Shown here: positions 9,053-12,150 of the stretch, one piece after another
Layout: every line of letters begins with the position of its first letter
Numbering within the stretch: the stretch's first letter is position 1
Sequence record: NC_100331.1
From: Escherichia phage vB_EcoS_HASG4
Length of the DNA stretch: 64,000 nt
Reading direction: 5' to 3' (one strand)
Position numbers and translations under genes: made by a program
Notes under the pieces: model-generated
Database searches by the model: none
What the model saw: the letters and a program-made list of their open reading frames with translations, nothing else
What the model was told of the DNA's origin: nothing

Positions 9053-9110
9053 TTTGCTTTCAACTCAGTTTTGTTATATAATATTTATATAAATTAATGA
9101 GAGGGTTGCA
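9053..9110 (+). promoter_or_regulatory. strong early promoter (T5-like family)
   Basis: TTGCTT-N17-TATAAT (9077-9082), then ATTTATATAAATTAATGAGAGGG. Confidence 0.5.
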
Positions 9111-9112
9111 AA

Positions 9113-9385
9113 GTGAAAAAGATAAATATAAGTACACTTAAACCTTTTCCATATATCGGACAGCCTCTCATACTCATGTGGGAGGAAAAGATTAATGGGG
9201 AAAAGTATACTAAAACTAGAATTGGATATAAACTGATTTCACTTTATTACGAAAAAGAAGTATTAATAGCTGAAATATACTCTCCATTATCGGGCAGGCT
9301 AGTAAAAACTACATATTTGCATCTTTGCAAAAATTATACGTGGCACGGATCTACCAGACAACCCACGTACTATGAGGCAGAATAA
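9113..9385 (+). CDS. hypothetical protein
   Basis: ORF with GTG start right after the promoter/SD; no motif. Confidence 0.3.
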   Translation: MKKINISTLKPFPYIGQPLILMWEEKINGEKYTKTRIGYKLISLYYEKEVLIAEIYSPLSGRLVKTTYLHLCKNYTWHGSTRQPTYYEAE

Positions 9386-10357
9386 ATGACCAATGTAAAA
9401 GAATTTATTAAACGCTGTCAAGAAGCATATTATCAGGGTATGTCTTTAATCTCTGATGAGGAGTATGATTGCCTGGTAAAACGCTTCCCGTTAGAAGAAG
9501 AGATCGGGCCTAAGGGCGATATTCCACATCTGTATCGTATGTATTCTTTACAGAAAGTTTATTATAATCGTGGAGATAAACCCCCATTTAACCCATTAGG
9601 TCAGGTAGAAACTGACAAGTTAGATGGTTGTGCGATTTCTCTATTATATATTAATGGCGAATTTGTTCAAGCACTAACTCGTGGTAATGGTATTCTAGGG
9701 AATGATGTCACAAGCAACGTAAGACTGCTGAATATCCCTAAAAAGATTTCCCAAAAAGTACCAACTCAAATCACTGGTGAAGTTCTAATTACAAAAGAAG
9801 TAGAAAATAAACGTAACTTTGCCTCTGGTGCTATTAACCTCAAAGATAGCGATGATTTCGTACAACGTATCGGGGAAGGCGGTTTAATCTTCGTTGCATA
9901 CGGTATCCAGTGTTCTGCCGAATCTGTAGGTATTACAGAATCGTATTTAAAAGATATGCTTTGGCTAGAGAATGAGAACTTCTTAACAGTTGTTAATGTG
10001 CGTTCCTTCTTTAAATGGATTCCGACTGACGGTAAAGTTGTTCGTATTAATGACAACAACAAATTCTTCCGTGAGGGCTGGACAAATAAATTCCCTCGTG
10101 GAGCATTCGCCATTAAAGAGGATGAAGAAGGCGAAATTACAACTCTTACTAAAGTTGAGTGGCAGGTAGGGGCTTCTGGTAAAGTAACTCCAGTTGGCTA
10201 TTTCGAACCGGTAATTATTGATGATGCTACAATTGTTAAAGCGACTCTTAATAACGTTGATTATATTAACTCTCTCGATCTAGAGATCGGTTGCCAGATT
10301 CGAGTGATTCGTGCTGGTGGTGTAATCCCGTGTATAGTAGAGCGAGTATACGATTAA
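9386..10357 (+). CDS. NAD-dependent DNA ligase, N-terminal (adenylation/OB) subunit
   Basis: ETDKLDGCAIS carries the KxDG adenylation-lysine motif of LigA-type ligases; length fits the nucleotidyltransferase plus OB domains only. Confidence 0.75.
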   Translation: MTNVKEFIKRCQEAYYQGMSLISDEEYDCLVKRFPLEEEIGPKGDIPHLYRMYSLQKVYYNRGDKPPFNPLGQVETDKLDGCAISLLYINGEFVQALTRGNGILGNDVTSNVRLLNIPKKISQKVPTQITGEVLITKEVENKRNFASGAINLKDSDDFVQRIGEGGLIFVAYGIQCSAESVGITESYLKDMLWLENENFLTVVNVRSFFKWIPTDGKVVRINDNNKFFREGWTNKFPRGAFAIKEDEEGEITTLTKVEWQVGASGKVTPVGYFEPVIIDDATIVKATLNNVDYINSLDLEIGCQIRVIRAGGVIPCIVERVYD

Positions 10358-10407
10358 TACATAACCCTTTGCTACCCATCTACCATATCGGAATTATAAA
10401 GTGGTTA

Positions 10408-10436
10408 TTGACATTTTCGCCGCTTAGGTATATACT
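10408..10436 (+). promoter_or_regulatory. consensus sigma70 promoter
   Basis: TTGACA (10408-10413), 17-nt spacer, TATACT (10431-10436). Confidence 0.55.
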
Positions 10437-10500
10437 ATTATCATTCAGTTGAGGGATAGAAAGTTATGGCGAGGGTAAGCAAAGTTAGTTAAAATTGTAG

Positions 10501-10556
10501 TTGCTAAATGCTTAAATACTTGCTATAATATTTATATAAATTGATAAGGAAGAAAT
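10501..10556 (+). promoter_or_regulatory. strong early promoter (T5-like family, extended -10)
   Basis: TTGCTA-N17-TGcTATAAT (10524-10529), then ATTTATATAAATTGATAAGGAAG. Confidence 0.55.
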
Positions 10557-10559
10557 TTG

Positions 10560-11339
10560 ATGAAAATCGAAATTCCAACACAATGTCCCTCTTGTGGTTC
10601 TAAGCTAGATCTTGTCAACGGACAATTATTCTGTCGTAATAAGTCCAACTGTCCAGCGCAATCAAGCAAGTTAATTGAGAACTTCTGTTCAAAAATGAAG
10701 TTAAAGGGCTTTGGCCCAAAAACTATTGAGAAGCTGGAGCTGACGAAGATTTCAGAACTATTTTACCTAACCGAAGAAGATTTGGTTAGAGCCGTGGGTA
10801 GCAAGGTTGCCGCTAAGTTAATTAGCGAATTAAATACTAAAGTTCGCGGAGACATTGACTTTGGTTCAGTTCTCGGTTCTTTAGGAATCCCTCTAATTGG
10901 AGAAGTTGCAGCAAAGAAACTATCCCAAAATTGCACTAGCTTCCATGATGTGAAGGCTGACGGCAAGGCTGGAGAAAATTACAAAGCCTGGCTAAATTCC
11001 CCACAAGGCAAGGATGTTATTGAACTACCGTGGAAATTTTCAACTGGTGTTAAGGGCACTAAAGCTGACGTCATCATTACAGATGAATTAGTTGCCCAGC
11101 CAAATGGAATCGCGGTATGTATTACCGGATCTTTGCAAGATTTTGCAAATCGAACGGATGCAACAAACTATTTAGAAGGTCTAGGATATACGGTTAAGAA
11201 ATCCGTTACCAAAGACGTCAAATACCTAATCTGTGAGGATGAATCGAAGCGTTCTTCCTCATCTTATAAGAAAGCCGAAACGAATGGGATAGAAATCCTG
11301 TCGATTAAAGAACTATTGGAGAAAAATAATAATGTCTAA
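10560..11339 (+). CDS. NAD-dependent DNA ligase, C-terminal subunit (zinc finger, HhH, BRCT-like)
   Basis: CPSCGSKLDLVNGQLFCRNKSNCPAQ is the LigA C4 zinc finger; downstream G-hairpin-G-like segments; ATG at 10560 with AAGGAAG SD. Confidence 0.75.
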   Translation: MKIEIPTQCPSCGSKLDLVNGQLFCRNKSNCPAQSSKLIENFCSKMKLKGFGPKTIEKLELTKISELFYLTEEDLVRAVGSKVAAKLISELNTKVRGDIDFGSVLGSLGIPLIGEVAAKKLSQNCTSFHDVKADGKAGENYKAWLNSPQGKDVIELPWKFSTGVKGTKADVIITDELVAQPNGIAVCITGSLQDFANRTDATNYLEGLGYTVKKSVTKDVKYLICEDESKRSSSSYKKAETNGIEILSIKELLEKNNNV

Positions 11340-12099
11340 ACTGAACTGGAACGTAGAAGGTGTAACCGAGTCTCTGAAAGCAAAAGCCACTGCTCTGGGT
11401 GTTTCTGTAATCTCTCAAGAACAAGTAGCTGCTATCGCTGCTGAACTGGCTGCTGAAACCGGCAAAGATGTTACTGCTCGCTCTGTTGGCTCTAAACTGC
11501 GTAAAGAAGGTTTTGAAGTACAAAAAGCTAACGAAGTACAGAAATCTCCGTGGACTCCTGAGCAGGAAGCTGAACTGGTTGATTTCCTGAATGCTCATGC
11601 TGGTCAGTATACCTATGCTGAAATCGCTGCTGCTGTAGCTGGTGGTCAGTTCGGTGCTAAACAGGTACAGGGTAAGATCCTGAGTCTGGAAATGACCGCT
11701 TCTGTTAAGCCAACCGAAAAAGCTGCTGCTGTTCGTTCCTTCACTCCGGATGAAGAAACTGATTTTGTTAATCAGGTTGTTGCTGGTGCTACTATTGAAG
11801 CTATCGCTGCTCACTTCGGTCGTAATATCAAGCAGATCCGTGGTAAAGCTCTGAGCCTGCTTCGTGAAGGTCGTATCGCTGCTATGCCGGTACAGGAAAC
11901 CTCAAGTGCTAAAACTCGTGAAGATCTGTTAGAAGGTCTGGATCTGGTTAACATGACTGTTGCTGAGATCGCTGAGAAAACTGGTAAATCTGAGCGCGGT
12001 GTTAAATCTATGCTGTCTCGTCGTGGTCTGGTTGCTAAGGACTATGATGGTGCCGCTAAGCGTGCTAAACTGGATGCAAAAGCTGCGGCTGCTGAATAA
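11332..12099 (+). CDS. internally repeated HTH-like protein with host-optimal codon usage
   Basis: Four repeats of an xTxAEIAxxxGxxxxxVxxKxLSxxxxG-type unit; strong bias to ctg/gct/ggt/cgt codons; followed by a terminator. Confidence 0.55.
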   Translation: MSKLNWNVEGVTESLKAKATALGVSVISQEQVAAIAAELAAETGKDVTARSVGSKLRKEGFEVQKANEVQKSPWTPEQEAELVDFLNAHAGQYTYAEIAAAVAGGQFGAKQVQGKILSLEMTASVKPTEKAAAVRSFTPDEETDFVNQVVAGATIEAIAAHFGRNIKQIRGKALSLLREGRIAAMPVQETSSAKTREDLLEGLDLVNMTVAEIAEKTGKSERGVKSMLSRRGLVAKDYDGAAKRAKLDAKAAAAE

Positions 12100-12116: not shown

Positions 12117-12150
12117 AAGGGGAGGGGGCTATGCTCCTTCCCCTTTTTGC
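12117..12150 (+). terminator. rho-independent terminator-like hairpin
   Basis: AAGGGGAGGGGG-ctatgc-TCCTTCCCCTT followed by TTTTG; overlaps the track's 12131 start, so that start is unlikely. Confidence 0.5.

Follow-up and report, generated by a model that had tools for sequence, protein, structure and literature searches.

A two-gene locus that very probably encodes a heterodimeric NAD+-dependent DNA ligase in a T5-like Escherichia phage, with tandem early promoters in the inter-subunit spacer

The NAD+-dependent DNA ligase LigA of Escherichia coli (2OWO) is a single 671-aa chain composed of six modules: domain Ia, nucleotidyltransferase (NTase), OB fold, zinc finger, HhH, and BRCT. In phage T5, the enzyme is distributed over two proteins, LigA and LigB (AAU05253/AAU05254; dnlj1/dnlj2), for which Wang et al. 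2005 is the source of the term 'split NAD+-dependent DNA ligase'. Sealing of the genomic nicks has been assigned to this pair of subunits (PMC4319617). Orthologues from Providencia phage PR1, a member of the genus Priunavirus, are represented by two PDB entries, 9HU3 and 9I5I, which were released in January and February 2026 under the title 'PR1 phage heterodimeric DNA ligase in complex with 21-mer nicked DNA'. Here, we describe the corresponding locus in a 64,000-nt stretch of DNA (henceforth termed the window) from Escherichia phage vB_EcoS_HASG4 (NC_100331.1). The window is 100% identical to Escherichia phage vB_EcoS_EASG3 and belongs to a T5-like Tequintavirus.

The locus shares with T5 its gene order, the 202-nt spacer between the two ligase genes, and both promoters within this spacer, with protein identities of 99% for subunit A and 97% for subunit B. 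Differences are at strain level; a 90-aa ORF upstream of ligA in the window (9113-9385) is missing from T5. The split ligase and its spacer promoters are already known, and nothing is added here for T5 itself: the split has been annotated since 2004-2005, GenBank records give names to the promoters, and a structure of an orthologous heterodimer on DNA followed in 2026. For the window, we conclude that the locus very probably encodes a heterodimeric, NAD+-dependent DNA ligase as known from T5-like phages (Demerecviridae), with the spacer acting as a working regulatory module. The features on which the analysis is built are as follows.

9054-9082, + strand: T5-type early promoter (TTGCTT-17-TATAAT) ahead of ORF 9113-9385 and ligA, followed by a 'repeat b' downstream element
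9386-10357, + strand: ligA, ligase subunit A (323 aa; domain Ia, nucleotidyltransferase, OB fold)
10358-10397, + strand: left stretch of the spacer, higher in diversity (pi 0.03-0.05 versus about 0.003 in the remaining spacer)
10388-10462, + strand: promoter 1, homologue of T5 P-K 28b (T5P36), with TTGACA at 10408-10413, N17, and TATACT at 10431-10436
10466-10492, + strand: mini-ORF of 8 codons (MARVSKVS, then stop) with an SD-like GAGGGA ahead, between promoters 1 and 2
10481-10555, + strand: promoter 2, homologue of T5 P-K 28a (T5P37), with TTGCTA at 10501-10506, N17, and TG-n-TATAAT (TATAAT at 10524-10529)
10560-11339, + strand: ligB, ligase subunit B (259 aa; C4 zinc finger, HhH, BRCT)
11332-12099, + strand: D5-like DNA-binding/transcription-factor gene with matches to HTH and sigma-70 region 4, called 'D5 protein' in relatives
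12117-12145, + strand: intrinsic terminator (13-bp stem, then a T run) closing the ligB-D5 unit, annotated in the source record

A preliminary description of this DNA had assigned an adenylation/OB half and a zinc-finger/HhH/BRCT half to separate ORFs, and the Pfam domains indeed divide cleanly between 9386-10357 and 10560-11339. The first of these, ligA, matches DNA_ligase_aden (PF01653, E 1.2e-23) and DNA_ligase_OB (PF03120, E 3.8e-22). Its adenylation motif I reads K78-L-D-G81, with K78 aligned to K115 of E. coli LigA, and the motif V lysine K244 aligns to K314; both the KxDG motif and K244 are invariant across the compared subunit A sequences. The NMN-binding motif of domain Ia (Y22, D32, Y35, and D36 in E. 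coli) is found in the phage protein as AYYQG...ISDEEYD, giving Y15, D24, Y27, and D28, of which Y15 and D28 are invariant among 34 sequences; this stretch also aligns to the Ia segment of 1V9P. Relative to E. coli LigA, the NTase domain of the phage protein is trimmed, and Arg220 takes the place of the motif IV residue K290 in ligA, with Arg throughout the clade, a swap that would appear conservative from the alignment. Residues 214-320 align to the OB fold of 2OWO (284-390), and the ligA stop comes 3 residues past the last OB residue alignable to the E. coli enzyme. An AF2 model of the protein (pLDDT 89.4) finds its best fold matches in chain A of 9I5I and 9HU3.

Complementary to this, ligB, which begins at ATG 10560 (with an alternative TTG at 10557), supplies the remaining modules. 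The four zinc-finger cysteines C9, C12, C25, and C31, the first of them 8 residues past the start, are all invariant and line up with those of the E. coli finger. Residues 3-122 correspond to the zinc finger and HhH of 2OWO (402-529, E 6.6e-11), and residues 169-253 align to 585-666. Among Pfam profiles, BRCT (PF00533) is recovered with E 8.8e-8 (32.7 bits versus a cut-off of 21.3), while the HhH match (PF12826) is weak, its 24.5 bits falling under the cut-off of 27. Together, the two phage proteins carry the six modules of E. coli LigA in order, including the motif I lysine and the four cysteines, in 582 aa over two chains versus 671 aa in one. The split falls in the flexible linker that joins OB fold and zinc finger, with all ligase residues retained. 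Nucleotide diversity in ligA amounts to 0.030/0.013/0.155 at codon positions 1/2/3, and in ligB to 0.093 at third versus 0.015 at second positions. Since second-position diversity is far below third-position diversity, both halves are under purifying selection.

Comparison of the junction in related phages, as the preliminary description had suggested, revealed a split at one and the same OB|zinc-finger linker in 92/92 related loci, which range from 99% down to 38% identity; in each of them, A and B are neighboring genes on one strand, with A first. The layout is common to 427 of 446 matching phage records, many of which name the two genes as ligase subunits A and B. Termini of both subunits align across 7 genera, with D5 downstream, and the top 33 subunit A cluster representatives measure 304-339 aa. 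The split clade includes uncultivated phages, and most of its distant members have short A-B gaps of 65-120 nt. In addition, compact relatives exist in fused form (555-586 aa, approximately the length of A and B combined). These one-chain ligases (P0034, P0042, P0054, and others) are 38-46% identical to subunit A and run straight into a subunit-B-like Zn/HhH/BRCT half (e.g., ...IIPKIINVLSSGTGRIIAPTECPSC...) through an OB-Zn linker of 10-18 residues, which in P0042 reads NVLSSGTGRIIAPTE. In a neighbour-joining tree built from 106 subunit-A-type sequences, the topology is star-like, and split forms are interspersed among fused ones. Some 'split' bacterial-type ligases of 376-401 aa are probably truncated gene calls. 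ZJUN2 (H26) carries an extra 193 nt upstream of ligA, outside the spacer, and a frameshift inside ligA of IME178 produces three 'ligase' ORFs.

The last example illustrates that sequencing errors or pseudogenes occur among relatives, and a single ligase gene broken by such an error or by a recent inactivating mutation might in principle also underlie the arrangement in the window. The halves, however, are separated by 202 nt that encode no ligase and contain stops in all frames, hundreds of genomes sequenced independently show an identical layout, purifying selection acts on both halves, and the orthologous PR1 pair has been solved as a heterodimer. An artefact or pseudogene is therefore refuted by the comparative data and has next to no likelihood left. 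An assembly artefact was likewise rejected, given the recurrence of the layout across the phage records and all 92 loci.

The spacer itself (10358-10559; 31% GC) conforms to the non-coding stretch of about 200 bp that had been described from the sequence, with at least 4 stop codons in each forward frame and with ligA and ligB in different frames. The two promoters proposed to lie within it, one TTGACA-N17-TATACT and one of the T5 family, are present on the coding strand, and the T5 record features P-K 28b and P-K 28a (also T5P36 and T5P37), from the strong T5 early promoter family, map onto these sites with 98.5% identity. In a promoter scan, promoter 1 reached 11/12 consensus matches, a value attained by only 7 sites in the 64-kb window (shuffles 3.1 +/- 1.7) and by only 2 on the + strand; promoter 2 (TTGCTA-17-TATAAT) reached 10/12, plus the TG ahead of its -10 element. 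Promoter 2 further contains an exact match to the shared 'repeat b' downstream element (10524-10548; 'repeat b copy 5' in T5), and the ligB Shine-Dalgarno AAGGAAG (10546-10552) lies inside the promoter 2 block. From consensus matches and GenBank annotation, transcription would start near 10443 from promoter 1 and near 10536 from promoter 2, and both promoters are predicted to be active in this phage. Literature searches for a T5 transcription-start map and for the promoter names PK28a and PK28b retrieved nothing relevant.

Conservation of this region is pronounced. Promoter 1 is retained at 98.5-99% identity across about 430 phage records, and approximately 160 of the 202 nt are made up of the two tiled promoters, which are nearly invariant (pi 0.002-0.004 versus a median of 0.064). 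Among the 4 windows of 100 nt that vary least in a 12.8-kb alignment, 3 fall in the promoter block, with the lowest diversity within the promoter 2 stretch, which indicates a functional module rather than debris. A tandem-promoter layout persists in other genera, including Klebsiella and Providencia phages and further lineages; in the PR1 spacer (loci L041 and L045), it is retained within 192 nt, with a different inter-promoter sequence. Conservation of the mini-ORF, which is absent or different in four loci (L008, L039, L040, and L041), stops at close relatives, and it is therefore probably incidental. The leader RNA transcribed from promoter 1 folds better than shuffles (z -3.5), but relatives further away do not keep the fold shape (z -0.8 to -2.75), and the fold overlaps promoter 2, so we do not claim an RNA element.

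Downstream, the first 8 nt of D5 overlap the end of ligB, which places ligB and D5 in one transcription unit; the ligB-D5 order also occurs in Proteus, Vibrio, and Klebsiella phages. The tandem sigma-70 early promoters P-K 28b and P-K 28a would start this unit. In turn, ligA would be the last gene of the preceding unit, driven by the T5-type promoter at 9054-9082 and separated from it by the 90-aa ORF. The T5 counterpart of this promoter, at equal relative position, is annotated as 'putative early promoter T5P35 / repeat b copy 4', and the window has a repeat-b-like element with 2 mismatches at 9077. A terminator scan predicted none between ligA and ligB. With the end of ligA free of a terminator, three promoters are expected to drive ligB and one to drive ligA, from which we infer an excess of subunit B over subunit A.

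Introns, inteins, and translational bypassing occur in DNA-metabolism genes of T-even and other phages. With these precedents, and with the leader RNA folding better than shuffles, a one-chain product might be considered, formed by removal or bypass of the spacer through a group I intron, a split intein, or translational bypassing. Several observations argue against it: a search of the region 10250-10700 against Rfam gave nothing at E<=1, group I introns tend to be longer than 202 nt, and each gene carries its own signals, a stop for ligA and an SD and ATG for ligB. The ligase alignments extend to residue 320 of 323 in A and begin at residue 3 in B, and therefore leave no room for intein halves. 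Moreover, other lineages accommodate whole genes in the gap, and the PR1 entries contain two separate chains named as heterodimeric. Taken together, a one-chain product is exceedingly improbable.

The proposal of a two-subunit ligase, by comparison, agrees with the T5 annotation of subunits A and B and with the PR1 orthologues solved as a heterodimer on nicked DNA, the split point and the domains per chain being shared with the window. The window halves match the chains of 9HU3 and 9I5I with E 3.7e-103 for A and E 1.1e-80 for B ('DNA ligase subunit B'), at identities of 52-57%; chain B of 9HU3 is 100% identical in sequence to Providencia phage PR1/PSTCR5. The titles and chains of the two entries constitute the evidence for the PR1 heterodimer, and searches for literature on 9HU3, on the PR1 phage heterodimeric ligase, and on two-subunit NAD+ phage ligases returned nothing relevant. 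By analogy with this orthologue, the proteins of the present phage may be expected to form an active heterodimer. Subunit A (domain Ia, adenylyltransferase, OB) would transfer AMP from NAD+ onto Lys78, and subunit B (zinc finger, HhH, BRCT) would provide the DNA-clamping half that is C-terminal in one-chain LigA. Assembled non-covalently on nicked DNA, the two would seal Okazaki-fragment nicks as well as nicks in the phage genome.

Alternatively, subunit A might act as a self-sufficient minimal ligase, with B serving a separate role, e.g., scaffolding proteins of replication or transcription through its BRCT and HhH domains, and being co-expressed with D5 instead of working as a ligase subunit. 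Minimal ligases that lack extra DNA-binding domains are known (PMC6144786), and ligB lies outside the ligA transcription unit and is translationally coupled to D5, both of which would fit independent halves. On the other hand, LigN truncated at its C-terminus to Ia, adenylation, and OB domains, i.e., a LigA-type enzyme devoid of Zn, HhH, and BRCT, self-adenylates without performing ligation (PMC1684257). The PR1 A and B chains also occur together on nicked DNA, and adjacency and order of the two genes are kept in 92/92 loci. We consider independent roles very unlikely, and the heterodimer remains our preferred reading.

The preliminary description had further interpreted the spacer as a possible remnant of an intron or homing element since lost. 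As an account of the spacer, this finds no support: the split is clade-wide, Rfam gives no match, and most of the spacer consists of nearly invariant tiled promoters whose tandem layout is kept in other genera. A weaker form of the idea is that a mobile gene, such as a free-standing homing endonuclease, anciently split a one-chain ligase at the OB|zinc-finger linker, with the spacer or its left 40 nt as the remainder. Such an origin concerns history and is compatible with present-day heterodimer function. Phage Aeh1 reportedly offers a precedent for gene splitting by a mobile element, with its nrdA split by mobE: there, an essential DNA-metabolism enzyme is said to be divided at a domain boundary into products that reassemble. 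A resident endonuclease is also found at the ligase locus of Salmonella phages SP3 and RUS_R2, where a GIY-YIG homing endonuclease gene sits behind the ligA stop and ahead of the promoter block. In SP3, the insertion of about 590 nt holds a 218-aa GIY-YIG ORF (PF01541, E 1.1e-5). Identity falls to 69-75% in the last 216 nt of SP3 ligA, beside the endonuclease, a tract that on sequence grounds looks like the product of co-conversion. The last 10 codons of the endonuclease match 10367-10396 of the window spacer (E 0.055 versus 251 nt; 10 residues). Further in favor of a mobile origin, the compact fused relatives are about as long as both halves summed, and the gap is an insertion hotspot, which elsewhere houses NADAR (Proteus phage Stubb), DprA-like (Vibrio phages), and radical SAM (L050) genes.

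Opposing this, the endonuclease occurs in just 3/436 T5-like records, and no other homologues of the SP3 protein were found in the phage collection; its presence therefore looks recent and derived. None was found in the gaps of the remaining 90 loci, and unlike the Aeh1 case, the ligA-ligB gap is endonuclease-free in nearly all members, holding promoters or unrelated cargo instead. Most of the distant relatives have short gaps, the 10-codon match is explained equally well by an endonuclease ORF reading into resident DNA, and the interleaving of split and fused forms in the tree does not fix the ancestral state. Apart from the 10-residue match to the endonuclease tail, the window spacer contains no remnants of gap cargo, and no gap cargo genes were found elsewhere in the 64-kb window. 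On balance, we regard an ancient mobile-gene origin of the split as doubtful.

For the window, the value of these observations lies in its correct annotation as a split ligase with a promoter-bearing spacer. Beyond this, the fused compact relatives could be used as natural controls for split-versus-fused experiments, and the comparison shows a split point that is invariant across a wide clade and an inter-subunit gap that acts as a variable cargo slot. More speculatively, and with a low probability in our estimate, the ligA-ligB gap may be an insertion slot of long standing, perhaps created by a mobile gene, whose cargo would relate to NAD+/ADP-ribose conflict (NADAR, DprA-like/SLOG-type, radical SAM). 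If so, cargo genes would be co-expressed with an NAD+-consuming ligase, and in T5 proper a strong tandem promoter would occupy the slot and set the excess of subunit B over subunit A.

We compared positions 9100-11500 with phage records and found 100% identity to Escherichia phage vB_EcoS_EASG3 (MK373799, Tequintavirus, Demerecviridae) and 95-97% identity to hundreds of T5-like phages; 446 records matched, 427 of them with at least 80% query coverage. The source record labels both ligase ORFs 'putative DNA ligase'. The features of the region are as follows.

9054-9082, + strand: third T5-type promoter, ahead of the ORF at 9113 and ligA
9113-9385, + strand: 90-aa ORF between this promoter and ligA, no Pfam match
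9386-10357, + strand: ligA half, 323 aa (ORF list)
10408-10436, + strand: promoter 1, TTGACA-17-TATACT (promoter scan, 11/12)
10466-10492, + strand: mini-ORF of 8 codons (MARVSKVS*) between the promoters, SD-like GAGGGA 10 nt before it
10501-10529, + strand: promoter 2, TTGCTA-17-TATAAT with TG before the -10 (promoter scan)
10557/10560-11339, + strand: ligB half, 260/259 aa (ORF list)
12117-12145, + strand: strong predicted terminator after the D5-like gene
9077, 10524 and 59280, + strand: 25-nt T5 'repeat b' element, TATAATATTTATATAAATTGATAAG, comprising the -10 hexamer and initial transcribed region

The preliminary description of two separate ORFs, one with adenylation and OB domains and one with zinc finger, HhH and BRCT, parted by a non-coding spacer, proved exact to the base when set against the ORF list, Pfam and the stops in all frames. 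Pfam assigns an adenylation domain (E 1.2e-23) and an OB domain (E 3.8e-22) to the first ORF and a BRCT domain (E 8.8e-8) with a weak HhH match to the second, and the zinc-finger cysteines of ligB (C9, C12, C25, C31) show no variation across seven genera. The spacer is 202 nt long at 31% GC, has at least four stops in every forward frame, and separates genes in different reading frames. T5 differs in lacking the 90-aa ORF, its ligA coming straight after the promoter. Phage ZJUN2 carries a different extra ORF of 66 aa at the same place; the upstream junction of ligA is thus variable too.

When aligned with E. coli LigA (2OWO), the A half places K78 at the adenylation lysine K115, K244 at K314, and residues 214-320 on OB residues 284-390. 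Alignment of the B half begins at its residue 3, first with E. coli 402-529 (zinc finger and HhH) and then, through residues 169-253, with 585-666 (BRCT). These alignments locate the break in a short linker, around E. coli 391-401, with nothing missing, and, since they reach near both ends, leave no room for intein halves. One-chain relatives retain an intact linker, for example ...IRSGEIIPKIINVLSSGTGRIIAPTECPSC.... All domain Ia residues for NAD+ use are there (Y15, D24, Y27, D28). At the position of the motif IV lysine (E. coli K290), ligA has arginine, R220 (codon 220, 10043-10045), as do the enzyme of Providencia phage PR1 and 34 of 34 aligned split-type relatives.

A PDB sequence search with both halves returned entries 9HU3 and 9I5I, in which the A half corresponds to chain A ('DNA ligase (NAD(+))', 339 aa; E 3.7e-103) and the B half to chain B ('DNA ligase subunit B', 248 aa; E 1.1e-80). 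Chain B shows 100% identity to the sequence in Providencia phages PR1 and PSTCR5. The same entries were the best fold matches of an AlphaFold model of the A half (pLDDT 89.4). One entry, released 2026-01-14, is titled 'PR1 phage heterodimeric DNA ligase in complex with 21-mer nicked DNA containing phage nick sequence', and the second, released 2026-02-18, has an equivalent title with '(random sequence)'. By analogy with this orthologue, solved as a heterodimer, the HASG4 enzyme should likewise be a two-subunit ligase, as had been proposed; two ligase subunits were already listed in a 2013 paper (PMC3632103). A one-chain NAD+ ligase cut down to Ia, adenylation and OB domains self-adenylates and cannot ligate (PMC1684257), behaviour that matches a division of labour in which A would perform the chemistry and B would grip the DNA.

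T5-like phages are already known for their split ligase. Comparing the ligase junction across relatives, we found the break at the OB end in all 92 loci (12 from GenBank and 80 from IMG/VR, 99% to 38% identity): ligA stops 0-16 codons past the OB alignment, ligB follows on the same strand, and none of the 92 encodes a fused ligase. A tblastn query of the two halves joined found 1169 phage records, among which the sampled Demerecviridae matches were all two-piece; matches with no more than 30% identity, from jumbo phages and others, were one-piece. Among 1.84 billion cluster representatives searched, the 33 top-ranked sequences (42-64% identity) were without exception 304-339 aa long, and from rank 34 onward came compact fused ligases of 555-586 aa with 38-46% identity to subunit A. 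Such compact one-chain NAD+ ligases (cluster representatives P0034, P0042, P0054, P0055, P0061, P0063, P0064 and P0069) are about as long as A and B summed and match subunit A as closely as more distant split forms do; a neighbour-joining tree was star-like, with split and fused forms intermixed. In Escherichia phage IME178 (NC_104190; L012:601-1571 in our set of loci), a frameshift cuts ligA into two ORFs, through a sequencing error or recent pseudogene formation, and the record has three 'DNA ligase' genes.

Both promoters claimed for the spacer were found by the scan, and T5 records annotate the same sites as 'promoter P-K 28b' and 'promoter P-K 28a', alternatively as 'putative early promoter T5P36' and 'T5P37' with 'repeat b copy 5'; these features project onto 10388-10462 and 10481-10555. 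The promoter and two-subunit readings are both correct and both documented before. Promoter sites at a 9/12 threshold are not above chance in this A+T-rich DNA; at 11/12 the 64-kb window holds seven (shuffles 3.1 +/- 1.7), only two of them on the + strand. 'Repeat b', with three copies in the window, all on the + strand, marks a family of near-identical early promoters. The tandem layout (TTGACA-17-TATAMT, ~60 nt, TTGCnn-17-TATAAT and the ligB ribosome-binding site) is retained in Klebsiella, Providencia and two other lineages, with diverged intervening sequence. The scan predicts no terminator in the ligA-ligB interval, and 8 nt of ligB are shared with the D5-like gene. Promoter layout, overlap and terminator positions together mark the spacer as the place where one transcription unit gives way to the next rather than as debris.

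Codon-position diversity (positions 1/2/3) across 29 distinct T5-like sequences is 0.030/0.013/0.155 in ligA and 0.033/0.015/0.093 in ligB, a pattern that points to purifying selection on both proteins. The whole spacer has a pi of 0.012, and 10398 to 10559 is almost without variation because two 75-nt T5 promoter features tile nearly all of it. When 25 phages were aligned over 12.8 kb, three of the four lowest-diversity 100-nt windows fell in the promoter block (pi 0.0016-0.0039 versus a median of 0.064). The leader RNA predicted from promoter 1 (10443-10562, + strand; -26.1 kcal/mol, z -3.5) pairs 10463-10473 with promoter 2, at its hexamer spacer and -10, with several G-U pairs; close relatives keep this fold via one-sided changes, and distant ones have other folds (z -0.8 to -2.75). 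Around the A/T tract that precedes the promoter 2 -35, every lineage has an inverted repeat, which may just reflect that an A/T-rich upstream (UP-type) promoter element is symmetric. In other genera the SD-like G-rich motif recurs after promoter 1, but the mini-ORF does not.

The further suggestion that the spacer is the scar of a lost intron or homing element is unsupported for the present spacer: the region has no Rfam match, and its near-invariant promoter block is a transcription-unit boundary. Salmonella phages SP3 (MG387042) and vB_Sen_SG_WM_RUS_R2 do carry a GIY-YIG ORF between the ligA stop and the promoter block.

L037:5184-5840 (SP3 locus): GIY-YIG ORF, 218 aa, PF01541 (E 1.1e-5), inserted at window ~10358-10365

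Its ATG overlaps the ligA stop, the insertion occurs in only 3 of 436 records, and the SP3 ORF has no other homologues in the phage collection. Over its final 216 nt, SP3 ligA has 69-75% identity to the window, and over the remainder 94-98%, save the first 108 nt, which vary in T5-like phages generally. Other T5-like phages likewise match those 216 nt at 69-75%, where 95-99% is usual; on these identities, the 216-nt stretch resembles a co-conversion tract. The ORF ends in DNA homologous to the endonuclease-free spacer (LLTPSTISEL versus ...CYPSTISEL* at window 10367-10396). Endonuclease-free spacers could accordingly be deletion derivatives, but the distribution of the endonuclease instead favours read-through of the ORF tail into resident DNA.

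In other Demerecviridae lineages, the ligA/ligB gap is a cargo slot (L005:1592-2209, L006:1816-2388, L007:2221-2781, L043:5281-5844 and L050:564-1568). Proteus phage Stubb has a gene there for a NADAR-domain protein (E 1.6e-31). Vibrio phages have one for a DprA-like protein (phrog_768), accompanied by small ORFs, and one environmental contig encodes a radical SAM protein. A crAss001_48-like small protein and several small uncharacterised ORFs also occur in the slot, and no homing endonuclease is among the gap genes of these lineages. NADAR, and possibly DprA-like proteins, belong to the NAD+/ADP-ribose-linked domain families surveyed in PMC9503650, and their genes beside an NAD+-dependent ligase form a suggestive pairing. 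The split itself possibly arose anciently by insertion of a mobile gene.
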